Origin: a virus | Reading direction: 5' to 3' (one strand) | DNA length: 64,000 nucleotides | Virus record (IMG/VR): IMGVR_UViG_3300048597_000118 | Span: 37,170-101,169 of that record | Part shown: positions 11,474 through 57,600 of the stretch, in pieces | How the letters are laid out: each line of letters begins with the position of its first letter | How positions within the stretch are numbered: the first letter of the stretch is position 1 | The notes under the pieces: model-generated | Seen by the model: only the letters and a program-made list of their open reading frames with translations | The model's database searches: none | What the model was told of the DNA's origin: nothing | Made by a program: the position numbers and the translations under genes

Positions 11474-11512
11474 TGCTTTAACTGATTAGGAAGAAAGGAT
11501 AGGATTAAACTA

Positions 11513-12682: not shown

Positions 12683-12695
12683 AACTGATTACCAC

Positions 12696-13373: not shown

Positions 13374-13439
13374 TTGTTCCTAGCTTGGGGGAGTGGTACA
13401 AAAAGAAATTAGACAAGGCAACCAAAACGATTATCAACC

Positions 13440-14069
13440 ATGGAAAGTAACAATCCTACGTACCTATTAGCCACTTTAGACCAACTACGCTCATATCTAA
13501 CAATTACAGAGTCCTCTTTCAGTGAAGGAGCTTTCAACTGCTCTCTAATAACCCGCAACACTAAAGTAGCACCTCTTAAATTTCAAGCCCTTGAATTAGC
13601 GAAGAAATTAACCTATGAGTGGGACCAACTAAAGACTAGAGTCAACGTATATCAAACATTAACCGACTTACCGGAGTCAAAAGACTTGGCTAGTGCCGCC
13701 TGCTTTTATTACTGCCACAGTCTTATCCTTGACTCTGTGGGTTGGGCTAATTTTGTCTCAGGAAAGCTACGGTACCGCATATATGGTACCCCTTATATGC
13801 GAGAAGAATCAGAATTGTTAGACCGTAAAACCGTAGTAGGTGCAGCAGCAATATTATACGGGCTGTCCATAAATGAATATATAGGCTCCCACTACACAGT
13901 CAAAACACCAGAGGGGAAAGAACACTTCCTTCGTGGGGCAGAAAATCATTGCTCTTGTAGTAGATACTCAATAGGACCCAATGGATTCTGCGAGCATTCT
14001 GCTTTAGGTAAAGTCTATTGTGATAATAGAGCTTTGCTGGTTAATACTGGTTTAGCCTCCTTCTTTTAG
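13440..14069 (+). CDS. SWIM zinc-finger protein
   Basis: YTV...HCSC-x10-CEH SWIM-like signature near the C-terminus. Confidence 0.7.
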   Translation: MESNNPTYLLATLDQLRSYLTITESSFSEGAFNCSLITRNTKVAPLKFQALELAKKLTYEWDQLKTRVNVYQTLTDLPESKDLASAACFYYCHSLILDSVGWANFVSGKLRYRIYGTPYMREESELLDRKTVVGAAAILYGLSINEYIGSHYTVKTPEGKEHFLRGAENHCSCSRYSIGPNGFCEHSALGKVYCDNRALLVNTGLASFF

Positions 14070-30100: not shown

Positions 30101-33100
30101 GCTAAAACTTCAACCACAAGCAGCAGAAGAGGAAGTATCTAGACAGTTCCTAGATATAATCAGCCAGGACTTTTTAGGTGCCAAAGCAGGTGAAGTACTT
30201 AGTTATAGCTATGACAAGTCAAAGGCTAATACTAGCGCAGATGTGGACGCAGACATGACAGCTTTCGCCATGTTGAAGTTATTGACTGATTACACTGGTA
30301 GCCGCGCTATGACTGCATCAGAGATGATGGAGAAAGGGCATTACAGCGCTTCTCTTAAGGCTTCTAGGGATGAACTGTCTTCTAAACTAACTACTCATAG
30401 TCAGCAGGTTACAGAGTACTTAGAAAGTAAAAAAGGCACCGACAATACTCGCATAGAAGCCGCTAAACAAGAACTGAGAAACGTCGGCGTAAAACCTGAA
30501 ATGGTGGACCGTGTAGTAAAAGGCCAGAGCAATAGTTGGTACATAGACGATGACGCTTTTGTCCAAAATACCATAGCTAACCTCATAGGCAAGTTTCAGT
30601 CTCAGTTCTTAGGCGGCAACTCTGTGGCAGATGACTTTAAGTCTGTAGATCCACTCTCTACTGAGCGCACTCTCTACACCCACGGTTTAGAAGTAGAGGT
30701 TGACGAGTCTGGTGATAGTCCGACCTACAAAATAGTAAGGAGAGAAGACTCTGATAAAACTATCCGTCGGAATGCTGCATATCAAATGCAGGATAAAGTA
30801 GACGCTTATAATCGCAAGTTTAATCTGTCTGGTCAAGATGCTTTACAAGTAACCGACTTAGTAAAGACAGATGATAAAGGCAATTTTATAGACTGGGATT
30901 TAGAAACGGCATCTAGCAAGATTAAAGAAAGGGCTAAACAAGAAGCCCTCCGTAAACTAAATAAAACTTTAGGGCTTGAACACTCAGCAGAATTACAACT
31001 CTCTGCTGAAGAAGCTACTAGACTATCTTCTGGTGATATAGGCATGGCGCAAGCTGACTTACGCACTAGACTTGATGGGGTCAAAGGCGTGTCTAATCTA
31101 GATAGACTTGCCACTGAAACCGAGTCTAATGCTAAGTCTTACCTTGAAATTCTAGGTAATAAACAGTCTGAATCAAAAGCAGGTAAAGCGGCGCTCAAAC
31201 AGATAAATGAGGGTAGAGCTACTGAAGATGCATTTACTTCAGTAGACCAAGCGCGAGCCTGGTCTACTAAAGTCTTAGAAAATGAAAACAGATTACTAGC
31301 CGACTTAAATTCAATAAATGAGGCTAAGTCTGCCACTCAACAAGAGTTACAGACTATAGAGTCTCGCCGTAAAAGAGTTCAACGAGTAGATTCTACAGTT
31401 AATCAGTCCGCAGACGCATTTAAATCTTGGCAGACTACTTCAGATACCATTGATGCTCAAGTAGACTCTTTCGAGGCTACTATGCGGCAGAACATGGAGA
31501 ATAGAGTCTCTGAGTTGACCTCTAACCGTGATGCCATTGAGACGGAGGCCGAAGGTCGCAATATGAGCGTCGATGAAGTCGCTGCCACCACGTTTAGAAC
31601 TCTACAAGAGATAACTACCCGTAATCAGGCTGACGACCTTATGGATGTCTTAGTGAAGACTAAAAAGCTAAACCAAGCGGTCCAAGGAGTAGTTACTGAA
31701 GGTCAATCAGAACAGTTTGCCGCTGTTAAAGACTCTCTTATCTCAGCCAACAACTTAACTTCATTGACCTTATTAGAGTCTATGGAAATATTGGGAGGTG
31801 AGGTTACAGCCCACGCCCAAGGTATAGACTCAGCCAAGCTCAATCAGGCATCTTTAGCCCAAGCGATGTCTACCGGTCTAACTAATGTGTTAGAAGCTGT
31901 CAGGACTTATTCTGACAGTCTTAGTGATGGTAGTCAGTTTGATAACAAATTGGGCGGCGCTATCATGTCTTTCCTGTCTATGGGTGGCGTACTTCCTGAT
32001 GAAATAAGCCAGATAGTAAACCAGAATGTAGCTCAACAGGTAGGCACGACAAAAGACTATGTTGAGCAGATGCAAACAGAACAAGGTAGAACAGCCTTGG
32101 CTAATAAGCTAGCTAAGTACGGCGGTAGTGACCTAGATATCACTACTGCTGAAGGTCAAGTAGAAGCAGCTAACCGTATAGTTAGAGGACAAACAGATGA
32201 GCTTCAAACTGGCGTCCTTAAAAACTTGATGCGGGCCGGCGTTATAGATGCTATTGCTTCTGGTTCTGGCTTTACTGGACATATGTCTAAGTGGTCTGAC
32301 TTGATGCAAGACACTATTGAGTTAGGCAATATGGACCCAGCAAATTTATCAGAGTCACAGCAAAGTATTTTAGACACTGCTCGCCAGATGCCTACACCTG
32401 AATATCAATGGGGTCAGCGCCTAGAGGCCAGTCAAGAAATGGTAGATAGGTTTAACTCTGGCTTAGAAAAGCGCGGTGTAAAACAACGGATCAATGCCAA
32501 CCAACTCTCTCGGTTAGCAAACAGCGATAATACTATGACTGTTCTAGAAGAACTAGGTCTAAATAAAGATACTAAAGTGGCTACACAGTTAGGCGCTCAA
32601 CTAGAAGAGTTTAGGTCTGAGCAGCGGACAGAATCAGTCTTACAAACACCTGACACTGTACGTAATCCAGGAGTAGCGCCCTCGATGTCTACTCCTGCCG
32701 TCGAAGACTTATCTGGCGGTAATACCGGCTTGGGTTCTAGTAGACCCCAAGATATGCAAATGTTATCTATAGATAAAGAGCAGGAAATGGTACGACAAAC
32801 TCTTGCAGATGTACATCGTACAAGACATGTAAGAGAAAAAGAAGCGGAGCAAAGTAAAGCAGAGTCTGCTTTAAGACGTAACTACGGTTTCACTGAAGCG
32901 TTAAGTATCTTAGCTATACCCGCCTTGTTTGCAGCTATGCAAGGTGATATTCCGGTCACAGAACAAGTGGGCGGTTTAGTTCAGGATGTTGTGACCTCTA
33001 CTCTGACCTCAGGTACCTTTGAGCAGTCCGCTACGTCTTTAATGTTGGCTGATGGTAAGTCAGAAGAAGAGCGGGCGGCCAGACTGGCTCAAGTACGTAG

Positions 33101-41394: not shown

Positions 41395-41454
41395 TTTTGG
41401 GAAGGCATTACTGCCTCTATTATACTAAGCATAGATTCCTTAACTTAACTACTC

Positions 41455-41604
41455 ATGCTATTCATACTCGGATATCTTACCCTTGGCATCTGCGCCCTCC
41501 TCTACATGGACTACCAAAACAGAGTAGTTCACGACATAGGCATAGTCGAATCAATCACAGAGAAAACCGCTGTAACCAGTAACCTAGAGCCAACCTTCGG
41601 CTAG
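41455..41604 (+). CDS. Small membrane protein (49 aa)
   Basis: MLFILGYLTLGICALLYMDYQNRVV...; N-terminal hydrophobic helix. Confidence 0.45.
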   Translation: MLFILGYLTLGICALLYMDYQNRVVHDIGIVESITEKTAVTSNLEPTFG

Positions 41605-42024
41605 CGCCCATTATCCTTACCTTTGTTTCCCCCATTGTCTTATTGCTTACCTTAGACGAGGCACAGAGTTTAGGAAGGAGACTACTAGATAAAGCTGAAG
41701 AGTATAGGAATAAAGGGGACTAACAACGGCTGTAATCATTAATAAGGCAATAGCTGGGAATTTAAGTCGTAATAATACTAGTCGCTGTAGAGTGACGGAA
41801 CAGGCGGGAAATGGTATATAGCCGGAAATTCAATTCGCATATGGGTGCAAAAATATACGCGCCAGAAAATGGAATGGTATATGTCTAGTGTGCCTAAGCC
41901 CCCTACGCCTGAGTGAGAAATTCCTGGCACTAGGGTCACTTAAGCCCGTTACCTTAACCTCCCTTGCTTATGGCTTGGGAGGTTATTTCATGACCTTCCT
42001 AACCGGTTCGACCGGTGTTTAATT

Positions 42025-42177
42025 ATGAAAATCTTACTAAAAGGTTGCTTAGCTTTCATACTTCTCTCCGGCTTGACCGGAGGGGCTGAATCCGCCCTAG
42101 TGGCAGCGAAAAATGTGCCTCGTAGGAGGCACTGCCACTGCTGCCATGGCAGTGGCGGGGGTAATAAGCCCCCGTGA
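42025..42177 (+). CDS. Small secreted Cys/His-rich peptide (50 aa)
   Basis: MKILLKGCLAFILLSGLTGGAESA-LVAAKNVPRRRHCHCCHGSGGGNKPP; first gene after the first promoter cassette. Confidence 0.55.
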   Translation: MKILLKGCLAFILLSGLTGGAESALVAAKNVPRRRHCHCCHGSGGGNKPP

Positions 42178-42267
42178 ATAACTAATCTTTAACCCCCTAT
42201 ATGCCCCCATATAGGGGGGTTATTTCATGATCAACTTTACCGCTAGGACCACTAGCAGGAGATCATT

Positions 42268-42690
42268 ATGTCCGTAGTTAAGCAAGCTGTAAGTATCCTG
42301 CTCCTAGCAGGCTCCCGTGTGGGAGAGGGTGAGAGGGTGACAGCTAGGCTGTTTATCCACTACCTGGGTGGTAGTGGAGATGCAGTGACCCTGCATAACG
42401 ATGCTCTTACTGAGCACTGTACCTCTGCCCCCAGGACATGGGACAAAGGGTACAAGTGGGGTGTTATAGCGCCCGGAGCCTACGTTAATGCTGTAGGAGG
42501 TTATACATGTTATCCAGATGGTACTGGATATGACTTGTATGACTTCGAATCTTGGGAGTTAGACCCTAAGATATGCAGCAGGCTATATAAGGTTAATACC
42601 TTGTATAAGCTAAGAATGCTGCCCCCTAACCTGGGGCGGTGCATAACCAGCACTGGTGTAGGTAAGCCCTACACCATCCAAATCAAGTAA
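42268..42690 (+). CDS. Hypothetical early protein
   Basis: AGGAG RBS; inside a promoter/terminator cassette. Confidence 0.7.
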   Translation: MSVVKQAVSILLLAGSRVGEGERVTARLFIHYLGGSGDAVTLHNDALTEHCTSAPRTWDKGYKWGVIAPGAYVNAVGGYTCYPDGTGYDLYDFESWELDPKICSRLYKVNTLYKLRMLPPNLGRCITSTGVGKPYTIQIK

Positions 42691-42776
42691 AACGTAACCC
42701 CCTCTATATGCCCCCTTGGTGTATAGAGGGGGTTATTTCATGTAAACTATAGCCGGTACTACCGGCAGGAGGCTAT

Positions 42777-43346
42777 ATAGCCAAACGGAGGAAACAGAAA
42801 TTCGATGATGATCCGTCTGGGTATTACCAGACTATGGATTATACAGAAACTTTCTGTGTGCCTATGGCTATAGGCAGTCACGCATCCCCTTTTGGGGAGA
42901 TAGTAATCGGCAAAGATTACTGTCCTGGACACGACATACCTGAAAGGTATGATGTGTCTAGTTTTGTCGTGCTGCTTTCGGGGGTATGGTTCCAGACCCA
43001 GGAACATTCTGACTGGGTTTGGGACTTGTATTGCCGCAAATATTTCTACTCTGGTGAAGACCAAGTAGATTTTGTGGTAATGCAGGATGGGCAGGTTTTA
43101 ATTCTCGTTAATGGGAGTTATGACTATGCTCACTTGCCCCCTGCTAAAGGATTCTCTATTATCCGTAAACTAAAACGGATATTTAAAGAGTTCTTAGGCA
43201 GTAAGCCAACCCATCTACAGCTTTATGCTGTGCCTTATGGCAATGATGGGCTCGAAGACTACAGAGTTAAAGTATTTAGCTCTGTGGGCTTTAACTCCTC
43301 TTCTGAAGATAAACAGAAGATGGTCTTCGAGGGTACTGACTGCTAG
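42777..43346 (+). CDS. Hypothetical early protein (ATA in frame after AGGAGG; first ATG at 42834)
   Basis: Open frame from ATA 42777, 4 nt after AGGAGG; cassette context. Confidence 0.6.
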   Translation: MAKRRKQKFDDDPSGYYQTMDYTETFCVPMAIGSHASPFGEIVIGKDYCPGHDIPERYDVSSFVVLLSGVWFQTQEHSDWVWDLYCRKYFYSGEDQVDFVVMQDGQVLILVNGSYDYAHLPPAKGFSIIRKLKRIFKEFLGSKPTHLQLYAVPYGNDGLEDYRVKVFSSVGFNSSSEDKQKMVFEGTDC

Positions 43347-43558
43347 GAAAGACTAGCGGTGCGTCTTTATCCGCACGCGGAAGCATAGATAAAGCTCTGA
43401 AATAACCCGCCCCACCGCTTCATGGTGGGTTATTTCATGGGTGTAACAACCGGTATGTAAAGCTAGCAGGCGCGCATATCTCTTTAGTAATCCACGCTCC
43501 CTAACAAGGTCTAGTCAACCGAGGTAAAGGAGAAGTCTGCTCCAAGGAGGTGATTTAC

Positions 43559-44149
43559 ATGACCTTCAAGTGCTTTTTAAGGACCGCAAGGGACCTTGAT
43601 TCCAGCTTGTTCATTAGTGATGGGCTGAAACTCAAGTATACCTTGGGTCCTGATAAAGGACGCCCCGCTGAAGAAAAAGCTCTACTACTAGTAGAAACTT
43701 TCTTCGACGGTGTAGAACAGGCTTTTCTCGCAAGGAAAGGCTATGTACTTGACGTCAGCTTCAAAGTTGACCTAGTTGTCAAGTTCTATGAGCAAAAAGT
43801 GAAGGATGAAGAGGGTAAAACCATCAAAGTCCTAAACAAAAGAGCTCTAGGCTTACAAGTCAAGTCTTCTGCGTTCGGGGCGCTAAAGCACGAAGACCTG
43901 CGGTTCTCAAGAGATTGGGAATTCGGGTTTCCAGAATGCTTAACTTTGGCTATGGGTACCAATATGGTTTCCCAATTAGTCAGGTTATTGCGGAGGAAGC
44001 CGAATAAGCGGTTCTTCGATGCTTTGGAACTAGCCCGTAACTTGGGTGGAGAAACTTGGCCAGAAGGCATACCGGGTATGAAAGACCTGGTTGTGCTGGG
44101 ATTGGCTAAGCCTACCAAACAAGGCTACGTGGTGCGTCCCACCCGTTAA
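43559..44149 (+). CDS. PD-(D/E)xK-type nuclease-like protein
   Basis: E..A...DVSFKVDLVV...LGLQVKSS motif; AAGGAGG RBS before ATG 43559. Confidence 0.6.
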   Translation: MTFKCFLRTARDLDSSLFISDGLKLKYTLGPDKGRPAEEKALLLVETFFDGVEQAFLARKGYVLDVSFKVDLVVKFYEQKVKDEEGKTIKVLNKRALGLQVKSSAFGALKHEDLRFSRDWEFGFPECLTLAMGTNMVSQLVRLLRRKPNKRFFDALELARNLGGETWPEGIPGMKDLVVLGLAKPTKQGYVVRPTR

Positions 44150-44281
44150 TGATATGACGAAATCATTAACAAATAAAAGCCCCCGTTTATGTAGATGAAT
44201 GAACGCTACAGACCCCCTCGCATAAGCTTGGGGGCTTTTTTCTCCGTGAAATTACCGGCGGTACAACCGCCAGGAGACAAC

Positions 44282-44572
44282 ATGGAAGGTTGTGTTAAGT
44301 ATTTAGTCTCTGCTTCTAAAAGCGTAAACCTAGAACTAGAGGGTGAAATTCCCCTAGATTTAGGGTATCGCTGGGAAGTGGGCGTGACAGATTGGGAAGT
44401 TCTATCTGAGTTAACCGGAGAGCCGGTTAAAGTTCTCCAAAACATCTTGTCAGAGATGACTGGAGACGATCAAGAGGCCGCATACGCCTGGTTAGACGCC
44501 GGGCAGACCTTTGACTGGTTATTAGGGGGTGATGTCCCCTACTTCGTGGAAAAAGAGCTGTATAAGCTCTAA
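44282..44572 (+). CDS. Small acidic early protein
   Basis: AGGAG RBS then ATG 44282; the track's longer start runs through the terminator/promoter. Confidence 0.65.
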   Translation: MEGCVKYLVSASKSVNLELEGEIPLDLGYRWEVGVTDWEVLSELTGEPVKVLQNILSEMTGDDQEAAYAWLDAGQTFDWLLGGDVPYFVEKELYKL

Positions 44573-44659
44573 TCCACCCCAATTAAGTAAAACAAAAAGC
44601 CCCCAAATTAATGGGGGCTTTTTTCTTGTTCTATCTGACCGGTACGACCGGTGAAGATT

Positions 44660-44830
44660 ATGCAAGTCATCAGCATTCGTATTTCTAAGCTATCTATCAC
44701 CTTGGGCGTAACACCTGAGGTAGTCACTCAGTGGTTATACGCGGAGTTTATTCGAGTAGAAGAACCTGCCCTTCGGGGTGGGGATAAAGAAGACGAATTT
44801 CCCACTAGTGGGAAATCTTCCCGCTGGTAA
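44660..44830 (+). CDS. Small early protein (56 aa)
   Basis: MQVISIRISKLSITLGVTPEVVTQWL..., directly after the promoter hairpin. Confidence 0.5.
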   Translation: MQVISIRISKLSITLGVTPEVVTQWLYAEFIRVEEPALRGGDKEDEFPTSGKSSRW

Positions 44831-44943
44831 TTAACTAAATAACCCTCAACAAGAGGAGGCAAGCTAATCAAACCTGGATTGAAAGCCAGTAAGGAATAGC
44901 GCGCCCCCGAGTTGGGGGTTTTTTACCGATTAGAATACCGCAG

Positions 44944-45759
44944 TTAAAAATTAAGTTTGGCTTTGTCTCCATACACGATTATGGCGTAGGAGTCATACAC
45001 TCTTGCAGCTTCTTCAGGAGTAGGATAAGTACCTATAGGGCGTGAGACTCCATTGACGCTAATCTGTGCTCTCCAACCTGATTTATGCTTAACGACGCCT
45101 CTATAAGTAGTATTGACAGGCTCGTCATCTACACTAAGCAGATTAGTACGTATAAAATTGTTTATCTGCTGAGTAGATAACCGTGCGCTGTCTAATCGTT
45201 GAAATAATCGTAGTGCTTTATCTACTTCTGTTTCAGCATATAAAAGGTTATCTACTGAGGGTATTGGGACAGACCGTACCTCTGAGACAGCTAAACACTC
45301 TGGAGCTTGTTTAATCTTACTAAATACAGAGCGGACTCCTATAGAACTAAATAAGGCATCAAGCCTCTTGGCACGCTCACTTGTCTCTCTTGCATCGTAG
45401 GCGTAGTACTTAACTAAAGAAGAAACTACTACCTCAGGCAGCATATAATTCTGATGGGTTCGTGTAGTGGCGGCCGTCGTAAGTTGTGGTTGGTTCTTAT
45501 AATCAAAGCCAGCTATAGGTTTTAACGAATCAGGTAAATCTTCAGGCCGCCAGTCAGGTAACCGCCGCAGCAAACCTTTTGCTAGCCCGTTTGCTTGTTT
45601 GCGCCCATCTATAAGAGATGAATGGTGCATATTAAGTAGACGGCTGGCTCCGCGTATAGAGCAGAAATAGTTGTTATCTCTTACTTCTAGCTCTGCATTA
45701 AGAAGCTGTCCTAATTCCGCATAGGACACTTCTGGTGGACATGGTGTTATTTGTGCCAT
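44944..45759 (-). CDS. AP2-domain DNA-binding protein
   Basis: C-terminal YRGV...WRAQI...IGTYPTPEEAARVYD..A...YGDKAKLNF is a canonical AP2 domain. Confidence 0.85.
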   Translation of the reverse strand: MAQITPCPPEVSYAELGQLLNAELEVRDNNYFCSIRGASRLLNMHHSSLIDGRKQANGLAKGLLRRLPDWRPEDLPDSLKPIAGFDYKNQPQLTTAATTRTHQNYMLPEVVVSSLVKYYAYDARETSERAKRLDALFSSIGVRSVFSKIKQAPECLAVSEVRSVPIPSVDNLLYAETEVDKALRLFQRLDSARLSTQQINNFIRTNLLSVDDEPVNTTYRGVVKHKSGWRAQISVNGVSRPIGTYPTPEEAARVYDSYAIIVYGDKAKLNF

Positions 45760-45997
45760 GATAGACCTTAGATATACAACAAGCTAATTATAACGTTATA
45801 AGCAGCACCAGCGGGCACTCCTATGTATACAAGGAGTGTTCTTTTTATGGCTATTTGAGCCCTATTTTTATGACCAAGACAACCGCTAGGTACTGAGTGC
45901 AAGACGGCTGGTAAGTATATGGTGCGACTCCATACGCCTTTATCAAATGGACTGTCAAGGTTATAAACATCGTCCCAGTACGACTGGGCAAAACAGA

Positions 45998-46519
45998 ATG
46001 TCTTTCTTAAACGCGATTAAAGAAGCTCTTTCCACCAAAACCGTAAAAGTAGAGGAAAAGGAGACTGCTAAAACCCGGACCCAAAAGTTCGTAGGTGAGT
46101 TCAAGGAGGTGGCTCAAACCCATCCCGCTGAACTACTTGATGCAGCCCAAAAACTGCATGGTATTGAAGTTATTAAAGACAAAGCCACAGAGAAGGCTGC
46201 CCAAATTGCTGAAGCTCGCAAAGCTAAAGAACGTTTGGTGTTTGCGGTAGACTCTGTCATAGAACAAATCGGTGTGGTAGCCGAAGAAATTCTGTGTCTT
46301 GAGGACGCCATTCTGGCTGATCAAGAGGCTATTAAGGTAGCCGAAGACGCATCGAAAGATGTGTTAGACGCTATGTCCAAAATGGACCCTGCTACTGTGT
46401 TAGCTGCTGCCCGTGCAGAACGAGCTAAAAAAGCTAACAAAAAGCAAGAGCCTGTAGTAAAACAAACTACTACCACTAAAGGCAATGGGCAACCAGCGCC
46501 TAAAGTGAACGTCGTCTAA
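45998..46519 (+). CDS. Coiled-coil early protein, paralogue A
   Basis: MSFLNAIK start shared with 46963; Ala/Lys/Glu-rich helices. Confidence 0.75.
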   Translation: MSFLNAIKEALSTKTVKVEEKETAKTRTQKFVGEFKEVAQTHPAELLDAAQKLHGIEVIKDKATEKAAQIAEARKAKERLVFAVDSVIEQIGVVAEEILCLEDAILADQEAIKVAEDASKDVLDAMSKMDPATVLAAARAERAKKANKKQEPVVKQTTTTKGNGQPAPKVNVV

Positions 46520-46596
46520 ATAAACAAGGGGAGTTTCCACCAGGATTCTCCCCTGTTTTATTGACGTTTACAGCCGGTACAACCGGGGAGGTCAAG

Positions 46597-46893
46597 GTGA
46601 GTTTCTCCAACCACCAACAGCGGTTTATCCGCAAAGCTCGGGCTACTGTCAAGTATGCCCAGTCCTTGGGGTGCCCCTCAGCCCCTATTGGACATGTCGA
46701 CTTCAGTAATGGGTCGGCGGGCTATGCAGTATGTAATCAGGTGATTCATTCCCTAACATACTGTCAAAACTACTTGACACGGGAGTTGACCCGTAACCCA
46801 ACCCTGGAGCAAGCTCAGGAGGTGCGTAAGTGCCTGAATGCTATAGCAACAACTATCAGACTCGGGACTAAATCAGTTTTGAGTCGAGATTAA
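46597..46893 (+). CDS. Hypothetical early protein
   Basis: GGAGG then in-frame GTG 46597 after the promoter hairpin. Confidence 0.6.
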   Translation: MSFSNHQQRFIRKARATVKYAQSLGCPSAPIGHVDFSNGSAGYAVCNQVIHSLTYCQNYLTRELTRNPTLEQAQEVRKCLNAIATTIRLGTKSVLSRD

Positions 46894-46962
46894 GAATTCC
46901 CGGGAATATTACTTCCCGGGTTTTTTTCTTGATCTATTTCACCGGTACGACCGGCTAGAATC

Positions 46963-47424
46963 ATGTCTTTTCTAAATGCTATCAAGTCTGTTTTAACAAC
47001 CGAAGCCCCCAAGGCTGAGGTTCAAGACAATGCATTGACTCGTACCCAAACTTTCGTGAAAGAGTTTTCGGACGTGGCTGACCACCACAAACCCGAACTT
47101 TCTGTAGCGGCGCAAAAGTTACACGGTATTGAAGTAATAAAAGACCGTGCATCTGCTAAAGCAAAACAAATCTCTGAGGACCGTAAGGCCAAAGAGCGTC
47201 TCGTGTTTGCTTTAGATAGTGTTGTAAAACAAATTGGTGTGGTTGCCGAAGAAGTTTTAACCCTAGAGGATGCTATTTTGGCAGACCAAGAGGCTGCCGC
47301 TATTGCTAAGGACGCGTCGAAAGACGTATTAGATACGTTAGCTAAACTTGATGCAGCCACCGTGCTTAAAGCTGCTCGCGCAGAACGGGCTAAAAAGGCG
47401 GCTGAAGCCAAAAAAGTCGTATAG
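46963..47424 (+). CDS. Coiled-coil early protein, paralogue B
   Basis: Shares AAQKLHGIEVIKD, RKAKERLVFA, QIGVVAEE, LEDAILADQEA and AARAERAKKA with paralogue A. Confidence 0.8.
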   Translation: MSFLNAIKSVLTTEAPKAEVQDNALTRTQTFVKEFSDVADHHKPELSVAAQKLHGIEVIKDRASAKAKQISEDRKAKERLVFALDSVVKQIGVVAEEVLTLEDAILADQEAAAIAKDASKDVLDTLAKLDAATVLKAARAERAKKAAEAKKVV

Positions 47425-47678
47425 ACTTTAATTAAATAGAGGGGTGTAAGCCCCCTCTTTTTATGTGGGTGACAACCGCTACTTCCTATCTCTGAGACCC
47501 TATGGGCAGACTCGTGTATCGAGCCAGGGTTGGAAGTAGCGCATTACCCACACGACAGTATTCAATACTGTCAGCCCGCCACAGCCGGAGTCAGACAACC
47601 GCACCTCGATACCCTTACCCCTACCTGGGCATATTTTTAACACCCTAACAGCCGATAAGCTCGGCAGGAGTTAAATTT

Positions 47679-47981
47679 ATGTTATTTGAAATGACTGTAG
47701 GCGCACATCAGACATACGAGAGATTCCAGACTAATCCTGGTGTCCCAGTAGTTATGTTGGTATTGGCCGAAGGGAGAGAGGTAAAAGTGCTTCTCTCCCA
47801 CTCTGGGACTTGGATTCGTCCAGGTAGGGAGAAAACAGTAGATTACTATGTCTGCTGCCATCCAGAGCGATTGGAGCCACGACTAAGGGAAAAACACCCC
47901 TTCCCAGACCATATAGGTCCTGTCCGTGGACGGGTATACGCGAAAGATAAAAAACTTTGGTGGGAGGTGACTCCCGCATAG
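47679..47981 (+). CDS. Hypothetical early protein
   Basis: AGGAG RBS; cassette context. Confidence 0.65.
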   Translation: MLFEMTVGAHQTYERFQTNPGVPVVMLVLAEGREVKVLLSHSGTWIRPGREKTVDYYVCCHPERLEPRLREKHPFPDHIGPVRGRVYAKDKKLWWEVTPA

Positions 47982-48228
47982 ATCAACTAACCACTTATGC
48001 CCCTCGGTATAGGTGGTTTTTTACTGTCATCTATTTTGCATAGTTACATAAAAGCAGAGGGCTGCATTCCTGACCCGGCAAGGGTTCTAAGGTTTTGATT
48101 AAGTGCTCACTCGAACAGCATTAAAGAAGCAAACTACATAGAAGGCTCTAATTTGAGCCCTATTTTATTGACTGTCTTTACCGGTAGTCATCACTATATC
48201 CGGCGTCTACAAGGCGTCGTGTTTTCGT

Positions 48229-48459
48229 ATGGACATTTTCGTTGTCTTGACTTTGTGGGTCTACGGACTTTTTGTCGTATTCTGCCTGAACGCTGTGGTA
48301 TCTGCCACAGCCCGGGCAATTTATTCCGTTTATGGGGTGACAGCCCAAGACATTCTCGTATGGGGGATTCAGAACCCCCTGTGGTTTTACAACCTGCTTG
48401 ATCAGGTAGCCCCCCAAGCTACCCAACAACACAATTACTTCGGAGGGTTGAATGACTAA
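48229..48459 (+). CDS. Small membrane protein
   Basis: Hydrophobic N-terminus (IFVVLTLWVYGLFVVFCLNAVV); downstream of the promoter copy at 48180. Confidence 0.55.
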   Translation: MDIFVVLTLWVYGLFVVFCLNAVVSATARAIYSVYGVTAQDILVWGIQNPLWFYNLLDQVAPQATQQHNYFGGLND

Positions 48460-48664
48460 TCCCAACACGGCGCCTAGCGGCGGCGCCTTACAAATAGTCG
48501 CTGGTAGTCCAGCTGGGAGGACTCAAATTAGTCCCAGTGGGTTCCAGGCAGGGTCCCATCAAAACCCTGGTCAAATCGTGTCCGTTGAGGGTGGAGCGCC
48601 TATGGCTCAGCTCTCGACGGGCAAAAGTTCACAGCCGGTCCTTACAAACAAAAACGAGGTAATT

Positions 48665-51600
48665 ATGAAAGTTAATCGACGCTTTGAATTAGGTATGTCT
48701 CTAAATAAAGAATGCCTTGATTATGTTGTCCATTTAAATCAAAAAGGCAATCCAAACTCGGAAAGCCAAAAACTGATCGATAAAGCCCGCGCTTTTCGTC
48801 GGGCAGCTCCCGTCCGGGCTGGTTTAAGTATCACATTCAGTAACACTCCTGTTGCTGGCGTTGTCATTAACCAGGAAGGCCGTGATGCTTCCGTTGCTTA
48901 TTGTGCTGCCCGCACCATTTACAAAGCTACCCGTCGGGTGGCTAATCGTGAGGCTTTCACTTTGATTAATATCCTGGGCTTGGTAACCCGCCGTCACGGC
49001 AAAGTTACTCGTAACTCTACCAAAGGATTTGGTACTGTTACTATCGTATCTTCCGGCACCTCTGCCGGTAAAACCGTGAACAACCGTAAAATCAACCAAC
49101 AGATTGCCCGTGCCCAGCGGGTATCTCGTCAGCGCCGTAATGGTCGGCGCTCCCAAGTTAGTAAAACAAGTCAGCAACGTGGTGCTGACCGTGCAGCCCG
49201 TGCTGCCAAACAGGGGGCAAAATTAGCCCGTCGTCGGGCTGCCCAGGCCTTCCTGGATGCTCAACGCAAGGCGGCAGTTATGGCTCTTGGGGTAACTCCC
49301 AAAGGGCATAAAGCCCCAGCTATGGTCCGTGGTGTACGGGTGAGCACCACCCCAATACCCACCACCCGGTCGGCTAAGTCCAGTGCCCTCCGTGGGGCAC
49401 ATGACGGTGTATATTACGTTAACGGCACTGAGGTGCCGGTGGTTAAAACAGTAGTTGCCCACCGTCAGGCAATTCTGCGTAAAGAGCGTAATGCTCTACC
49501 CTTAGCGGTACGTAACCGCCGTCTAGCGGCGGAAAACGGAACCCGGTTCCACCGGGATGCTGAGTTCGGCGCACGGCGCGCCTTGAGTCGGCACATTGTA
49601 GAAGTCCCTGTTATGCCTGTATGGCGTATGGTGCCCACTGCCCCAGCACCTGAGGTAACAGTGGCAGACTTTGAAGCCAAGGCTAAAGCCATTATGGCTG
49701 AGGCTAAAGTCAAATACGGCGCTGGTGACCTCCAGATGTCGTTAAATAGTAATTCTAGCGACCGCGATATAAAAAGCGGACTAGAAGCTCTACCGGTAGG
49801 AGACTCCATGGATAATATCGTAAAACTCGTCAGTGACCTTATGCCCACGGCTCAACCCGTAGCATCTATCCACGCTGACCACGCCTCTAATGACCGCTCC
49901 CTCGGCTATTACGTCAGCCTCTGCTGCGTATACGTCGACGGTTCCGGTCGTCAGACTATCAAAGGCAATATCAATTTGCCTATCCAAGCTCACTTCAGCA
50001 AGAAGCAATGGCCTGTCATCGGTGAACCTATGACCTCCGAAGACGCTAGCCTTAATGAGTCTTCTCTGCTTAAAGTGAGCGCCGAGCAACCTGTGCTCAA
50101 GTTCCGCACCAGTGCGGCCTACAACACAGGGAATTACACTCCTTGTGGTATGTGGCTATCTAAAGCCTGGGAGCGACCATATCCATTGAGGAAGAAATAC
50201 CCTGAAATCTCCCCCGAGATTTCGGTTATGCTGGATGGCAAAATGACGGTAGCTAACCTAGCCAAACCTGCTGAAGGCAAAGACAATATCACCCTTCAAC
50301 GGGCTATCGTCGACGCCCGTCTAGAGGTATGGAACGCCATCATGGGCGCCACCACTGAGGTCAAAGCCGGTGGCTGTACCGTTAAAGGCGGACTCGGTGC
50401 CAAATTACAACCCGGTCGTAACTGGGTGGTAGTTGTTGCTGATGTCACTGCGATCAACGGTGCCTCTAAAGAGAAAGGCGGCTTTGACATGTTGTTCAAC
50501 GTTACCCGTCCTGATGGTGTGGTATCCGTTGAGGGCTCCCTAGCCAAAGAAGACCTATACGGTCATGGTCGGGACTTTGCCTATGAGCGCATGGCAGCCC
50601 AGTCCATTGAGGTGCTCTATGTGCCTAACCTCAGTGATATTTATGCTGAGAAAGTGTTGGGTCCTTGGCACCCCAGCATCTCTGAAGGCTTAGCCCGTGG
50701 TTTCTACGGTGATTTACCTGAGTTAGCTGTAGACACCAAGAGCGGTAAGTTCAAGTATGCCGCTGCGTCTAAGGGCATAGCAGACCCCAAACGGGTTCGG
50801 CTATGTGACTTACTTGACTGGTCCTATGAGGCTTACGTCATGATTCAGTGCTGTCGGGAGAATCTACTGAATCAACGTGGACTACCCAGTGGTTCACGGG
50901 TAGTTACCAAACCAGCCGCACCGGTGGTCAAAGCAAAAGCAGCGCCCACTGTAACTACTGAGCCCACCAAACCTGTAGATGTAGCCCCTGTTATTGCTAG
51001 CCTCTTGGAAGCAGTGACCGCCGCACCTGCCCCTGCCCCGGCTCAACAAGTAGCCATAGTAGAACCAGAAGTAGAGGTTAAAGAACCTACTTCGCCACCC
51101 AAAGTAGAGGTGGTAGCAACGAAACTCCCTGAGCGCCCTGTAGTGCCTACCGTAGAACCTAACCTACAAGGTTACGCCGGTGCGCTCAGCCAATACCTTA
51201 ACCACATGGAAGGTATGTGGGTTAACCGCGAGTTAGCAAATATCACTGATATCAGTGTGTATTGCCAGGAACACGTCCAAGCGTGGGCTAACCTTGACAA
51301 GACTACAGGATTCAACGCTGAAGGTGTACAAGCCCGCACCAATGGTGTATCTGGTGCTTTTGGCGTTATTCGTTATCTAGCTGATGTCACCAAGACTGAA
51401 GGTGATTGTAAGCCTAACCTCAGTTTCTATGGCTTTGATTGGCAGCCCGAACACGTTATGAACGTGATTGCCATTCTCCGTAGCTATGAGTCTACCAATC
51501 ACCAGGATGATTTGTGCTACTTCAAACCTGAAGCTGGTGGGTATATCTTCAGTTTCCTTGGTAAAGAATTCGCCTGGATTCCTGAACTCAACGGTGTCAT

Positions 51601-54600
51601 CGACCTACCCCGTGGTCGGATGTTCAAGAACGTCGTTATGGCGTGCTACTCAGAAGAGCTCACAGAGAATGACCAACTAGTCAAAATCTACCGTGGGGCT
51701 CAAGCTATGTCCTCTATGGGTAGCTTCATGCGTTACCTATACATGGTGGTATTGCCTGTGATGGCTCATCTACCCGCTTCGGACGACTGGTCTGCCGTGG
51801 GTGCGAACCTTAACCAGTATCTCAATAAAGATGCGGGAGTCATGTTCCCCATGTCCTCTGACAATATCCTGTCAGAGAATGCTAACTTCCGTTGGGCTGA
51901 GTCCAATAGCTGGGCTCCCATGGGTCTAGACGTAGGCTCTACAATGCCTACTCCTGTAGTCAACGTAGATAAGAAATTCGCCTTAATTAACTGCTGGGGT
52001 ATCTACGCTGACAAACTCATCAAGGCATACGCAACTAACTATAAGCAGGCGAAGTTAACCAACGCTGAGTTTGCCGAGAACTTGTTGCCCGAAGCTATGA
52101 GTCAATTGGGTATTACCTGGTCGTTCAACAAGAACGTTGGGTATTCTATGCCTAACTTTGCTATTAACTGTCTTGTATTAGCTGAGCATGCCCCCGCTAT
52201 TTACGAACTAGTTAAAGCCCAGTTCGTCATAGATATGGGCGGTAGTAAAGCGGTAGATGAGTTCCTAGCCGCCTCCAAGTTCGAATCGTTAGATTTGTTC
52301 TTGCGCGGATGCGTAGTGAATAGTAACGGTAAAGTTGCTAAAGGAACTAAGCGTCAGCTATTGCGGGCACCTAACTCAGTGCAGTCTGGTAGCTATATCA
52401 ACTGTGATCGCAAACCTAAATTGGCTAAGATGCTAGCGGCTGGTCGTGGTGTCAAACCAGTTGATACCTTGTGGGCTGGTATGTTACCGGAGAACTTCTA
52501 CGCTGTAGGTGCCGGACACAAATTCAGCACTCAACCTGAGCCTATCACTGGCACAGCTATCCGTGTAGCTCTTGGTCTAACGGCTGTTGGTCCTGCTGGT
52601 GTAGTTGCTTGGATTGGTGGGCCTAATCAAATGCCCCATGGCTTTGGTTCTAATATTGAGCAGTCTAACTTTGAGATTCCCCAACGGGCTATCGAAGTTC
52701 AGCCTGGTGTTGGCTTTGGCGCCGATGATATCCAGCTAGTCCGCCCTGAACTGGCTGTAGACTTCCGTCAGCCTGAATGCGTGTTGGCTGATGTTGAATT
52801 GGTGACTGAAGTTCATCGGGTGCGGGGTATTGAATATTACTACTTCAAACCTCAAACTGCTGTGTATGTACATGGCAATGGTGGGTCTGTGGTGTGTAAT
52901 GTATTCACCAATGATGAACTTGCTCCTAGCAAACCGTTTGCCTATGAGAGTAATAACGGCGACGGCATCTTGGAATGGGTACGTGTCCACGTAGCACCAG
53001 AGATTACCGGTAAGAACCTAGAGGTGGAATTCAAAGTCACCACTATGGAACGGCAGGCTAAGATTCGTAGCTCTGTGGCTAAGGCTAACCTAATGCCCGT
53101 TAAGTCTTCGTTCTTGAAGTTGAACGGTGTGGCTGGGAAACTGGTTGACGCTGTATATCTGCAAGACGCCATGAAAATTGACGTTGATGGGTGTCTTATC
53201 AGTGTTATTGGTGTCACGTTGGTGCTTAACCCTGACTGTAATGACCCTGAGTTCTTAGCCATGGTTGAATTGGCTAAGGATATCAACGAGATGGTTGAAG
53301 GGCGCCGCCACTTGGATTACTTGGTAGAAGACCACGTGTCTATGGTTGCTCAACCTAAGTACACCGAACTGCAAACTCGGTTCTACAACTACTTCAAGCG
53401 TGAAAACGTTTGGACAATGTGGGAAGAACTAGAGCATGGTGACTTTGGCTATGCCATTGACCGCCTATACACCGATATGTCCAATGAAGGGTTGGACTCT
53501 TGGCGTGCTGTTACTGATGCCTTAGAAGCACGTGAGTTGGTAATGAACCTAGCGGCCGATGTAACTGATGAGTATACCTACAAATGCTTCACCAATGATA
53601 AAGACAATGTCTTTGTCTTGTTCATTAATGAAGCCGGGCGTGTAGCTAAAGTAGCTCAACGGTCCACTATGCTGGTTGGTCGCAATAATTGCCCCATCTA
53701 TGATGTGGTGCTCTATGAAGCGGCTACTACTCGCCAGGGTATCAACAATAATACCTCGGGTCAGATGGATGTCTGCATGCGTTCCTTGCGTGCTATGACT
53801 GATGCTTGGGGTATTGGTAATGATGGGTTGGCTAAAGACCTTATCCGTCGCCAAGGTATTTCTGGTAAGACTAACGCTATGTGGCGTGCCAAAATGCTAC
53901 ACCTTAGCGCCCATTGTGGTCTCAGCAAAGCCATTGATGGTCGTCAAGTCATCAAACTAGGCGAATGGAAAGAGGCAGATAAAGGGCAAGCCACCTGGGT
54001 ACCTAACTCTGAAGTAGTGGCTACCATCAAGTCCATCTTGGGCAATGCTGATGTGTCTAACGTGTCTAACTTTGGTGGGCTATGTGAAGCCCTTAAAGGT
54101 TATATCTTCACTGTTGATGCGTCTCGTAAAGAGTATAAAGTAGACGAGGAGAGCGGTGAAGTCTATGCCGTGTCTAAGTCTATTGAGGTATGGACTCCGT
54201 TCTTGTATTACCTCAACGGACGTAGTGCTGAAGATAATAGCCATAGCACCGCCAGTGGTCTATTCCAGGCTTACTTGGCCAAAGCATTATCCATTAACCC
54301 TGACGCCCGTAGTCTTGGCATCATTGCCAATCAACTATGTGGTCGTATGGACTCCTGGGCATCTTCTGAAGGTGTCCGTAAGTTTATCTCTGGTGGTGAG
54401 GTATTCGGCGGTAAGGTTATCGCTATGCCTAATCTACCTACTGGGGTGATGTTACTCTATGAGGGTGATGACCAATGGGCTAATGCCCGCCGCGTGGCTA
54501 AACATTATGGCTTAGACCTACGCAATGTACCCACTTGGGCTGACTATAAAGCCTTTGGTGAGGCGGTATGGGATATGCCTGAGCGTACCGAGGCGTTTAA

Positions 54601-57600
54601 CCATCTCACTCGTAGTCCTATTAAAGACGGTCCGGTTCAACGAGTACTTCGCATGCCCAAGTCCGTTGAAGCCTACAAGGATACGTTCTATTGCTTCAGC
54701 AATCCTTGGGTATATAACCCATTGAGTAGCAAGAACGTCTTGGCTAATCCATATCCCTATACCATTGGCGTATCTGTTATCGCCATGACTGGTGTTACTA
54801 AGGGTGACTCTGACGGTGATGGTGTGAGTGCTACGTTCTTAGTTAGCAATGTACCCGGCCTTCGTGGTTTGGTTACTGCTGAAGATAAAGCGTGGGAAAG
54901 TTGTGATAAATGTGCCGGGTTACCCGGGGCACAAGCTCGCCTGGAAGTATATCTAGGTGACCACTTGAGTGCCCCTAGTTTGGCTAAGAAAGCTAATATC
55001 TTCTTCCGTAAAGGTATGTTAGCTGTGTCCTTCAAAGACGGTGGTGTTAGTGGTAAGCATTTAGTATTAGCCGAGACCTATAACACAACCAACGTTCGCT
55101 CTTTGATTCTGCAAACTATGCAGGTCGGGGTGAGCTATAAAGTTTACCGTTTGACCGAGGCTATCACGGATATTCTCAATGGTCTTGTCAAAGGTGGTGT
55201 GTTTAAAGCAGCTGGTTTAGAAGTACCTGAGATGTTCAAGCCCTTCGTCGGTCCTCAATCCTACTATGCAGTAACTGCCTGTGCAGATATCTATGAGTAT
55301 GTATTGGGTGCTGTTGATGCGTTGGGTTGGCAACTCTGGGGTATGCTTAAATCCGTAATGGAAGCCAAGTTTGCTCCTATGTGGCACGCTCCGTTAATCC
55401 ACATAGACAAGACAGACGGCAATACAGTGGACCATAATGCTGAGGCTGAAGCCAAAGCAGTTCTGTTTCGTCAGAGTAAAGTAGCTGAGCTGACTGGAAT
55501 CCTCGGTAAGGCTGGTGTAAATACCAGTCAAGCCGACGCCATGGCTACTGCTTTCTGGTTGGCATCTTATGCTAACGGAACTGTTAAGCAACAGTCTATG
55601 TTCATGTTTGACGTTCAACGTAGTGACCGTCGGCTTGCACAGTTCATTATTGCTGCCGCCATGTTGGTCACCGAAGCAGGTCGTGCTAAATGGCATGGCT
55701 TCAATCATGGTCCTCTCAATAGCACTGCTTTGGCTAGTGACGAGAAGGTAGCTAACCATAAGAAGATGACTACAGTGACCTTAGACTACCTGACTAAAGG
55801 TGTAGCCGCCCATGATGTATGGGTTAACGCTGTATCTGAAAGCCATTGTTTGCAGTTGCTTATGGATATGGCTGACCCTGAGACTTTAGGTGACTTGGTA
55901 GTTGGTCCCCCGGCTAACACTGCTATTGATTACTTTGTCAATGCAGACTTGGTTGCCCATTATGAGTCTCAGTTGGCTGCTCGTGTTGGTGATGTCAACA
56001 TGGTCGAGATTAAAGAAACCGTGGTTGATGTGGAAGTATGTCTTGATATCTTTGTCACTGACGAAGACGAGGAGTTCGACTTAGTTGACCCTGATGCAGA
56101 TATATATGACGATTATCAACCGACTTATGACGAGGAGGAATATATGGAAATGCTCGCTAACCAGGCGATGTTGGCTCAAATGTTGGCTGCCCCCACTGCC
56201 GTAATTGAACCCACGGATAATACTCCAACTCCTCACTGTGTTGATGAGGATATGTATATCCCCGAGGAACAGACTGAAGAAGACCGGTTGGCTACTCAAC
56301 AAGTTATGGCTCAGCTGATGACTAAACCTCAGGCTGCCCCTGCTCCTGTAGTAATGCCTGCTCCTACTGAAGACCAAATCTTCTTAGCCAAACAGGCTGC
56401 TGTAGAAGCTGAGATTAGTGACCTAGAAACCCGTTTGGTTAAAGCCCAAGAGCTATTAGCTAAACAAGAAGCTCAGGCAAAAGCCCTGCGGAAGCTAGAA
56501 GACAAAAAGGCTAAATTATCGGCTAAACTAGCTGACGTTGTTGCTAAACTCAGCCCTGAGTACCTCGCCATGTTAGAAGATAATACCCAACCAGAAGAAG
56601 ACGAGGATAATGGCGGTGGCAATGTTAAGCCTGAGCCTGATGCCCCCAAACCTCCTTCTGATGACCATGGTCAGAATCTAAGCATCGATGCAGAAGTTCA
56701 GAAGGTACGCCATGATTTAGAACAGTTGGCTGCCCGTGCTCGGGATGGTGAGGTGATTGGTCGTCCTAGCCCTGAGCCTGCGCCTTCTGATGAGGATATG
56801 TATATCCCTGAAGAAGGTAATCCTGCGGAGAATATGGCGGCCTTTGCCGCCGCCGCTGCCACTTCCGTTACTGCCACTACTAACGAAGTAGTAACGGAGC
56901 CCACCTGGGCTGACTTTGTCCAAAGCATCAAATGGGAGCGTGGTGACGTATGTGAAGTCGAATACGAAGACGGCACCATCGGTTGGATGTTAGGCCAAGA
57001 GGTTATCCCTAACATAGTCAGCTCTGATTATGTAGATGGTCGCTTGTGGTTCTACCATGAGAAGCCCAACGTTCTCTTTATTGAAGATGGCTTGACCATC
57101 AATGACGTACCCGACGTTCAAGGATGGGAACTAGACCTATGTGATGACATTCGGTACGTTACTGGGTATGTAGGAGGAACTATTACTACCACCCCAGAAG
57201 CTAAAAAGGAAACTAGTGAAGTAAAATCACCGGATGACATCGTGGCTACACTAATAGAAAGTTACGCAAAAAAGTCTCAGCCCAAAAACCTTATTGAGGC
57301 TAAGACTAAAGCTCGCTCCCTTCCATGTCCACCTATAGACGATGAAGGTGCCACCGACTGCCAGAAACGCTTCTTCGAAGCCGCCTGCACCGGTGATAAC
57401 ATCTTCTTATCTGGGGAAGCTGGCACAGGGAAAACCTACGCCCTAGAGTCAATGATTAACCATTGGTTAGAACTGGGAGATAAAGTCATCGTTACCGCCA
57501 CCACTGGTCGCGCTGCTATGAACATGGGCGCCCGCTTTGATATCGAAGACTTAGCTGGCTACGGTACCTTTAACTCTGTGTTGGGTCTGGGCATCGGTTT

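Follow-up and report, generated by a model that had tools for sequence, protein, structure and literature searches.

Short inverted repeats that recur upstream of a series of phage genes raise the question of whether they act in the DNA, as promoter hairpins, or in the mRNA, as leader structures. We addressed this question in a stretch of viral DNA of 64,000 nucleotides (nt), hereafter the window, which forms the final 64 kb of the linear, 101,169-bp IMG/VR virus record IMGVR_UViG_3300048597_000118 (estimated to be 68% complete). The hairpins are located in a 6.2-kb block of approximately 11 small plus-strand genes (41.98–48.23 kb), presumed to be early genes; at its end stands the gene, with its operon, for a protein of 3452 amino acids (aa) with a C-terminal Pif1/Dda-type helicase. 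Among the products encoded in the window are a major head protein, a maturation protease, a portal, and a tail sheath, and one protein of the window shares 46% identity with a counterpart in Microcystis phage Ma-LMM01 and its kin; the source is therefore a myovirus-type phage, probably with a cyanobacterial host. For these hairpins, the original prediction had offered two readings, an N4-like DNA hairpin read by an injected RNA polymerase or an mRNA element. Our results place the element at the RNA level with high confidence and argue that it is not of the N4 type; it is best filed as a composite terminator/promoter-type cassette plus a co-varying mRNA leader hairpin, a variation on the theme of the promoter-early stem-loop (PeSL) cassettes of T4-type phages (PMC2839356, PMC4122927).

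Seven homologues were recovered when the central part of the 3452-aa protein was used as the query, and the contigs of two of them were compared with the window: an IMG/VR record (L017), whose homologue is 73% identical, and JACCDR010117045.1 (L016), whose giant protein is approximately 29% identical and for which 1.1 kb of upstream sequence was covered. The same cassette was found in all three phages, with 12 copies in the window, all on the plus strand of the block, 13 in the syntenic block of L017, and two in L016. Its order is fixed: a terminator-like hairpin is followed by a T-tract ending in (A/T)TG and usually then AC, by exactly 9 nt, by the box RCCG(G/C)T, and by the start codon, with a Shine-Dalgarno sequence between box and start codon in about half of the sites. 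The 27 aligned cassettes share TTT at −16 to −14 (1.8–2.0 bits), TG at −11/−10, CCG at +2 to +4 (1.6–2.0 bits), and T at +6. A pattern scan returned 10 motif matches in the genome of the window and 10 in the L017 record, confined to the plus strand of this block, and the reversed-pattern control stayed at background. Because the cassettes are kept in L017 and also in L016, at approximately 29% protein identity, the cassette motif is, on comparison of these contigs, conserved far more deeply than the genes behind the cassettes. Among GenBank phages, nothing resembled the window at the DNA level, and a search for similar sequences yielded none at either the DNA or the protein level; motif pattern scans of IMG/VR gave chance matches only, besides one relative record, and no further lineage. 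The motif scan of genome contigs and direct IMG/VR scans with the homologues P0008 and P0004 gave no match, the 190-aa gene was without a relative in IMG/VR, and an Rfam search returned terminator-like noise only.

All seven perfect hairpins named in the original prediction were present exactly where it had placed them on the plus strand. Short-leader cassettes use the box itself as the hairpin's 5′ arm, as in ACCGGT-tcg-ACCGGT (42002–42016), which stands 8 nt before ATG 42025 and has a predicted RNA minimum free energy of −7.7 kcal/mol. The hairpin GCCGGT-act-ACCGGC (42752–42766; −10.4 kcal/mol) is abutted by AGGAGG, and the start of its gene is uncertain; GGCGGT-aca-ACCGCC (44257–44271) is abutted by AGGAG and lies 10 nt before ATG 44282; ACCGGT-acg-ACCGGT (44638–44652) lies 7 nt before ATG 44660; CCGGT-aca-ACCGG (46574–46586) is abutted by GGAGG, 10 nt before GTG 46597; and CCGGT-acg-ACCGG (46942–46954) lies 8 nt before ATG 46963. 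The seventh, CCCAGT-acg-ACTGGG (45974–45988), lies beside the ribosome-binding site, 9 nt before ATG 45998, and is located 92 nt downstream of the box at 45882. The two looser variants also held, each with a 5-bp stem and a 5-nt loop: GCTAG-gacca-CTAGC (42242–42256) and GCCGA-taagc-TCGGC (47651–47665), both abutted by AGGAG, 11 nt before ATG 42268 and 13 nt before ATG 47679, respectively. To these we added a tenth plus-strand hairpin, CGGCGTCT-aca-AGGCGTCG (48201–48219), with eight pairs including two G.U, which lies beside the ribosome-binding site and 9 nt before ATG 48229.

The observation is real and is more than chance. Perfect hairpins that combine a 3-nt loop and a ..GT/AC.. closing with a stem of 5 bp or more number 13 in the whole 101-kb genome, and seven of them fall within these 5 kb. 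When positions 41950–48250 were compared with 300 dinucleotide shuffles, the real sequence had 21 perfect hairpins with a 3-nt loop and 5 or more bp (shuffles, 6.7 ± 2.7) and 12 with 6 or more bp (shuffles, 1.8 ± 1.3). Further perfect 6–7-bp hairpins with 3-nt loops lie inside coding sequences of the block (42297, 42843, 42935, 43681, and 47324) and add to the enrichment count. The link with the start codon is equally marked: a hairpin ends 7–13 nt before the start codon of nine of the 11 block genes, compared with 5.3% of random positions and one of 42 other large open reading frames (ORFs), and in L017 a hairpin precedes 11 of the 11 cassette genes but neither of the two genes upstream of the block. 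The original statement that every hairpin lies about 7–14 nt before a start fails for the hairpin at 42752, for which the called ATG is 67 nt downstream and no start codon occurs within 14 nt. The proposed constancy of a T-NCN-A loop stands in the window, where the central C is found in 7/7, and fails in L017, where only the T and the next A are conserved; there, the 3′ A of the loop closing is often T, which gives a T.T mismatch and effectively a 5-nt loop.

The changes in the stems proved to be compensatory, as had been proposed. When 16 hairpins from the window and L017 were aligned in a single register, 90.6% of the cells paired and five of the six pairs changed on both sides (23 cells), a result reached by 0 of 500 shuffles, and the signal collapsed when the partner was slid by 1–3 columns. 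Among orthologous hairpin pairs, the switch from CCGGT/ACCGG to CCGCT/AGCGG recurs. The 45974 family shows one base-pair insertion and two double changes (CCCAGT, CCCAAGT, and CCTAGGT, with matching 3′ arms), its L017 homologues being CCCAAGT-aaa-ACTTGGG and CCTAGGT-aaa-ACCTAGG; the L017 orthologue of the 42242 hairpin is GCCCTTAG-acac-CTAGGGGC. Retention of pairing through compensatory changes in homologues was found for the hairpins, for the outer helices, and for the inner hairpins of the leaders. This pattern bears directly on the view that the element is a palindromic DNA operator, in which a 15-bp repeat, ACCGGT-N3-ACCGGT, would be bound by a dimeric repressor that shuts off the block. 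An inverted repeat with 3-bp spacing does recur before each gene, over the presumed start region. However, where one half-site deviates, the other carries the matching complementary base (the 23 double-changed cells noted above), a pattern that a base-reading protein would not select; the stems at 45974, 42242, and 48201 share no half-site sequence with the others; and the arm spacing in L017 runs from 3 to 10 nt. Since the stem co-variation rules out a base-reading dimeric operator, we regard this explanation as barely credible.

The early DNA hairpin promoters of coliphage N4 and of N4-like phages such as LUZ7 share several features with the window hairpins: they are short GC-rich repeats with 3-nt loops, their stem bases are free as long as they pair, and several copies stand before early genes (PMC4496689, PMC9163698). 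On this model, a supercoil-extruded repeat would be read on one DNA strand by an injected phage polymerase, with the start at a fixed downstream distance. The window stems of 5–6 bp are GC-rich and co-vary, their 3-nt loops carry a central coding-strand C, that is, a template-strand purine (7/7), the loop centres lie 15–19 nt before the start codons, and the genome encodes three giant virion-type proteins, two of them with an invariant DxDGD. The determinants of N4 are nevertheless absent here. N4 hairpins form in DNA and are read by a T7-like virion polymerase; extrusion and recognition depend on a G:C closing pair with loop bases 5′G..3′A (PMC4496689), and transcription starts 11–14 nt downstream of the loop centre in N4 and LUZ7 (PMC4496689, PMC9163698). 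The window hairpins close with T:A and have coding-strand loops ACG, ACA, ACT, and TCG (CGT, TGT, AGT, and CGA on the template strand). In L017, the 3-nt loop geometry is not kept, since the homologous hairpins have loops of 3, 4, 5, or 10 nt, some of them AAA, and the T-A closing pair is often T.T; the L016 hairpin has a UUCG tetraloop. No N4 gp50-like or T7-like polymerase was detectable in any of the giant proteins.

The position of the hairpin relative to the gene further separates the two levels. In roughly half of the sites of both phages, the stem is followed immediately by AGGAG or a close variant; because the Shine-Dalgarno sequence abuts the stem, the hairpin must be in the mRNA. Counted from the loop centre, this conserved AGGAG takes up positions +8 to +12 in roughly half of the sites, and a start of the N4/LUZ7 type, 11–14 nt after the loop centre, is unlikely because it would cut this AGGAG off. 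The hairpin at 48201 depends on two G.U pairs and its L017 orthologue, GGCGTCT-ata-GGGCGTC, on three; on the template strand these would be A.C mismatches, which again points to RNA. Finally, the hairpin and the box are separable. Four of the 12 window cassettes, and several in L017, keep the motif and box without a local hairpin, and hairpins with unrelated stems occur approximately 90 nt downstream of the box, beside the start codon, at 45974 in the window and at 6880 and 7603 in L017. Thus, the hairpin follows the start codon and not the box. Taken together, these observations leave the N4-like promoter a very improbable explanation; as to level, the alternative of an mRNA element was borne out by a hairpin located in the 5′ leader, enclosed by longer co-varying helices and directly next to the ribosome-binding site.

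The cassettes themselves were mapped as follows, all on the plus strand. TTTCATG-N9-ACCGGT was found at 41986–42007 (site 1) and at 43433–43454 (site 4, with a 111-nt leader and a box without a local hairpin), TTTCATG-N9-ACCGCT at 42223–42244 (site 2), TTTCATG-N9-GCCGGT at 42736–42757 (site 3), and a variant with the box GGCGGT at 44241–44262 (site 5). TTTCTTG-N9-ACCGGT occurs at 44622–44643 (site 6) and 46925–46946 (site 9), and TTTTATG-N9-ACCGCT at 45866–45887 (site 7), where it starts a structured 117-nt leader, and at 47459–47480 (site 10), where it starts a conserved non-coding stretch of approximately 170 nt. TTTATTG-N9-GCCGGT lies at 46557–46578 (site 8), the variant TTTTTAAC-N9-GCCGAT at 47635–47656 (site 12), and TTTATTG-N9-ACCGGT at 48164–48185 (site 11), before a 76-aa gene and the gene for the 3452-aa protein. 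Each of these 12 cassettes in 6.2 kb is downstream of a terminator-like hairpin. Those mapped on the plus strand lie at 42193–42218, with a T-tail that is the start of cassette 2, and at 42710–42733, 43411–43429, 44215–44234, 44594–44623 (12 bp), 46528–46551, 46899–46920, and 47438–47458, before cassettes 3, 4, 5, 6, 8, 9, and 10, respectively. Terminator-like sites are five-fold enriched in the region (32 observed vs. 6.4 ± 2.1 expected).

Promoters of the sigma-70 type do not account for the motif. The scan of the region found six sigma-70-like promoters against 9.1 expected, with none in any cassette or before these genes, and reading TGAC as a −35 element or the N9 segment as a −10 element gave no workable register, the T at −7 being missing. 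A second candidate, in which the ATG of the motif would start a mini-ORF, was ruled out: site 3 reads ATG-TAA, and ACG or TCG replaces the ATG at some sites. The region has a single good sigma-70-like promoter (41397–41426, TTGGGA-18-TATACT), at the head of the plus-strand block. The first gene after it (41455–41730) has an apparent frameshift in the window and is intact in L017 (3442–3735, 97 aa).

Several leaders fold beyond the local hairpin. In the leader that starts at cassette 7, an outer helix, P1, pairs TATGACC (45869–45875), which is part of the cassette motif, with GGTTATA (45959–45965), directly before the 45974 hairpin. In this leader family, which comprises the paralogues 45998 and 46963 and their two L017 counterparts, P1 has 7 bp in three homologous leaders, with one double change and two G.U changes. 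The leader of cassette 10 has an outer helix between TGTGGG (47464–47469) and CCCACA (47547–47552), which is TGAGGA/TCCTCA in L017, with two double-sided changes. Co-variation of outer helices that take in the ATGAC segment of the motif is seen in two leader families. For an RNA starting at the box, the hairpin is predicted to form at the 5′ end (−6.4 to −10.4 kcal/mol) with the Shine-Dalgarno sequence and AUG unpaired; with 22 upstream nt added, the ribosome-binding site is predicted to be less accessible (0.58 without and 0.37 with them; p = 0.003). The upstream motif also pairs better with its own than with foreign ribosome-binding regions (−7.46 vs. −5.81 kcal/mol; 0 of 5000 permutations). 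We rejected the more general idea that the box is always paired in RNA, which is true for short leaders, whereas long leaders did not exceed shuffled controls. The first cassette precedes a gene for a 50-aa hydrophobic peptide (42025–42177; 4125–4280 in L017). In the L017 orthologue of this membrane peptide, the start codon lies in a perfect 9-bp helix (TTTCATGAT/ATCATGAAA) with the upstream motif, and the window helix has 6 bp; such a sequestered start codon resembles, by analogy, the control of small toxic membrane peptides.

Two further structures were observed in these leaders. A hairpin with the invariant 7-nt loop TGCGACT is present in all three paralogue leaders (45917–45940 in the window; approximately 6823–6846 and 7545–7568 in L017), and its stem co-varies, TATGG/CCATA versus GGGG/CCCY. 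Between two cassettes, the conserved non-coding stretch of approximately 170 nt (47475–47650; 8570–8741 in L017) is more conserved in its 3′ half than the neighbouring proteins, and it contains an 8-bp hairpin, GACAGTAT-tca-ATACTGTC, at 47554 and two internal ACA-RCCG box-like words. This stretch may represent a small RNA of the phage or serve as a decoy for the factor that reads the box.

RNA-level pairing of the motif could also mark an RNA processing module. Long read-through transcripts would then be cut by an endoribonuclease in the U-rich..AUGAC segment between two hairpins, of which the upstream one would protect the 3′ end and the downstream one would protect the new 5′ end, and the cut would free the ribosome-binding site from P1. 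A single-stranded AU-rich segment between stem-loops is the usual setting of an RNase E site, the co-varying P1 helices show that RNAs spanning the motif are under selection, and the sigma-70-like promoter at 41397–41426 could drive long transcripts from the head of the block. The motif is, however, far more specific than the known preferences of RNase E, with two blocks at an invariant 9-nt spacing that are kept at 29% protein identity. Furthermore, the upstream T-tract hairpins look like competent intrinsic terminators, so that the downstream genes would need new starts. We consider processing a distinctly improbable account of the cassette.

In conjunction with these results, we proposed that the hairpins are mRNA leader hairpins within PeSL-like composite terminator/promoter cassettes, a reading to which we give an even chance. 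The hairpins would be sense-strand RNA structures in the 5′ leaders of the approximately 11-gene block. In short leaders, the 3′ arm would have evolved to complement the box; in long leaders, a separate hairpin with an unrelated stem would provide the same U-A(C) loop start 7–14 nt before the start codon. The upstream motif would act as a promoter-like, non-sigma-70 element that restarts transcription at or near the box after each terminator, and the mRNA so initiated would carry a stable hairpin at its start or just before the ribosome-binding site. This hairpin could shield the 5′ end and leader from nucleases and stop upstream sequence from pairing with the ribosome-binding site. When transcription reads through, the upstream motif in the resulting RNA would pair with the ribosome-binding region, as in P1, so that accessibility would fall and the RNA would be less translatable.

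Several points weigh against this proposal. The start site and promoter activity, like the stabilizing or insulating role of the hairpin, are what we infer from sequence. The co-varying outer helices show that motif-containing RNAs exist and are under selection, which would fit a processing site or an upstream start equally well as read-through. The box of long leaders is no more paired than in shuffles, and the hairpin of these leaders adjoins the ribosome-binding site and not the 5′ end; thus, a 5′-terminal hairpin is not the whole story. The mismatch count over all hairpins in an unbiased search (G.T 7 vs. A.C 5) gives no clear strand signal. Besides the short DxDGD motifs of the giant proteins, no polymerase able to read a non-sigma-70 promoter was identified in the encoded proteins. 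Lastly, the T and A of the loop start are kept even among unrelated stems, which hints at a trans-acting reader.

A reader of this kind would make the hairpin an operator for an RNA-binding protein that recognizes the stem and the U-A-C loop start beside the ribosome-binding site, and that either represses or times translation of the block or loads an antitermination factor. RNA operators are well known from the MS2 coat protein operator and the thrS operator, and lambda N acts on boxB in antitermination. Here, the stem-closing T is invariant and the next A nearly invariant in the 16 hairpins, even in those without a 3′ partner or with unrelated stems; the hairpin ends 7–14 nt ahead of the start codon or directly adjoins AGGAG, so that a protein bound to it would stand in the way of the 30S subunit; it stands before nearly all genes of the block, as in a regulon; and the numerous terminators of the block would be targets for an antiterminator. 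The variation among homologous sites in stem sequence, stem length (4–8 bp), and loop length (3–10 nt) would, however, be poorly tolerated by a sequence-specific binder, persistent antitermination requires one site per operon and not one per gene, and no candidate RNA-binding protein was identified. On balance, we regard a trans-acting operator as possible but unlikely.

Single elements of the proposed cassette have counterparts elsewhere. The mRNAs with the Escherichia coli ompA leader and the phage T7 gene 10 leader are protected by a stable hairpin at or near the 5′ end or beside the ribosome-binding site. For the T4 lysozyme gene e, early RNA that reads through keeps the ribosome-binding site buried in a helix, whereas RNA started within the helix is translatable, and helix P1 is the parallel in the window. 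These are single genes, whereas the element described here is repeated before nearly every gene of the block and tied to a box at a fixed spacing. The lambda nut site consists of boxA, a spacer, and the boxB hairpin, with one site per operon and a near-invariant boxB. Like the cassette, it combines a linear element, a short spacer, and a 5-bp, small-loop hairpin in early transcripts of a terminator-rich region; unlike nut, the cassettes provide one hairpin per gene, with variable stems and loops, at the ribosome-binding site. PeSL cassettes resemble those of the window in overall design. They are repeated intergenic elements of approximately 50–100 bp that contain a terminator stem-loop, a promoter, a Shine-Dalgarno sequence, and the start codon, occur in a plastic early region ahead of small genes with unknown functions, and mark break points of gene replacement and reordering (PMC2839356, PMC4122927). 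They rely on strong sigma-70 promoters (−35 and −10 elements), whereas the cassettes described here have the T-tract..TG-N9-RCCGST motif instead and carry a second, co-varying hairpin beside the ribosome-binding site.

The window cassettes share the association with genome plasticity. They are conserved between the window and L017 while the downstream genes 42834, 43559, and 47679 are replaced by unrelated genes; moreover, the orthologues of 44282 and 44660 stand in swapped order, and 46597 is relocated. Judged from gene order in these two genomes, the cassettes are break points of gene replacement and reordering between the window phage and L017. They look like recombination joints for the swapping of small genes, which takes the PeSL idea beyond T4-type phages. 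Nearly every gene of an apparent early region is thus preceded by a compact, strongly conserved cassette, and the lineage, which encodes three giant proteins, is a rare one. In addition, the co-varying hairpins offer clean material on how structure adjacent to the ribosome-binding site affects mRNA stability and translation, in a phage that probably infects a cyanobacterium, a setting with weak use of Shine-Dalgarno sequences.

If the motif is a promoter, it would define the recognition sequence of an unknown transcription enzyme, and the function of the giant DxDGD proteins would become directly testable. Three giant ORFs were considered: one of 5173 aa (18195–33716), the 3452-aa ORF (48452–58810), and one of more than 4659 aa, located before the window on the minus strand (positions 2–13978 of the genome), which has kinase-like and tail-lysin-like matches. 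GDSDGDG and an upstream R..P are invariant in eight homologues of the 3452-aa protein, and GLGDYDGDS and an upstream RQG.P in five homologues of the 5173-aa protein; in sequence, these DxDGD motifs resemble the catalytic loop of two-barrel polymerases. Comparison of the three giant proteins with PHROG, Pfam, and PDB sequences gave no RNA polymerase match, in a record estimated at 68% completeness. PF00940 had no match in the genome or the relative, and the same model also matched none of the control genomes. For the 3452-aa protein, a profile search against the PDB recovered the helicase domain only, Pfam at E <= 10 recovered helicase-type families only, and the ESM Atlas gave no usable match; its AlphaFold model, built from an eight-sequence alignment, was poor (pLDDT, the predicted local distance difference test, 48.5), and Foldseek with this poor model returned no match at E <= 0.001.

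A precedent for such a reader comes from Thermus phage P23-45, in which the virion RNA polymerase, fused to the tape measure protein, and a second phage polymerase have separate promoter motifs (PMC10770324). The two phages have in common giant virion proteins and an early block of small genes that carries a strongly conserved, non-host promoter-like motif and includes the gene for a second large enzyme, and P23-45 gp64 and the 5173-aa protein both contain the short motif DYDGD. Unlike in P23-45, polymerase activity here is only a candidate property: the giant proteins had no profile or fold similarity to gp96 or gp64, with hhalign probabilities below 1% against both, and the word "hairpin" does not occur in the text of the P23-45 paper (PMC10770324). 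We thus treat this precedent as a lead and not as a result. A bolder proposal, which we consider quite unlikely, is that the cassette motif is the promoter of an unrecognised phage RNA polymerase residing in a giant DxDGD protein, and that the U-A-C-loop hairpin is a recognition element of that enzyme or of a new RNA-binding regulator, which would coordinate initiation, 5′-end protection, and translation of the early regulon. If true, a polymerase with a dedicated hairpin would constitute a promoter and leader architecture without a described counterpart.

Some additional features of the two genomes were observed. In L017, three tandem units of approximately 24 nt (GGACGGGGAATTAACAGCGGAT) lie right upstream of the first cassette (3830–3915), with no counterpart found in the window. 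At L022 (G001:1-861, minus strand) and L017 28304–29401, a sigma-70-family ORF with regions 1.2 and 2 stops short where the relative's record ends, next to an IS605 tnpB-like gene; IMG/VR classes this record as a provirus, so the ORF may be host flank or phage-borne and was not used as evidence. The genes at 45998–46519 and 46963–47424 are paralogues (MSFLNAIK...), each with a leader hairpin, and these hairpins differ by a compensatory change (CCCAGT/ACTGGG vs. CCGGT/ACCGG); L017 likewise has two copies of the MSFLNAIK gene (6905 and 7627), which are adjacent to each other there. Between two cassettes of the window, a minus-strand gene (44944–45759) encodes a 271-aa homing-type HNH endonuclease with AP2 and NUMOD-like domains. 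This gene is missing from the syntenic place in L017, and degenerate cassette remnants flank it in the window (44915–44945 and 45838–45865).

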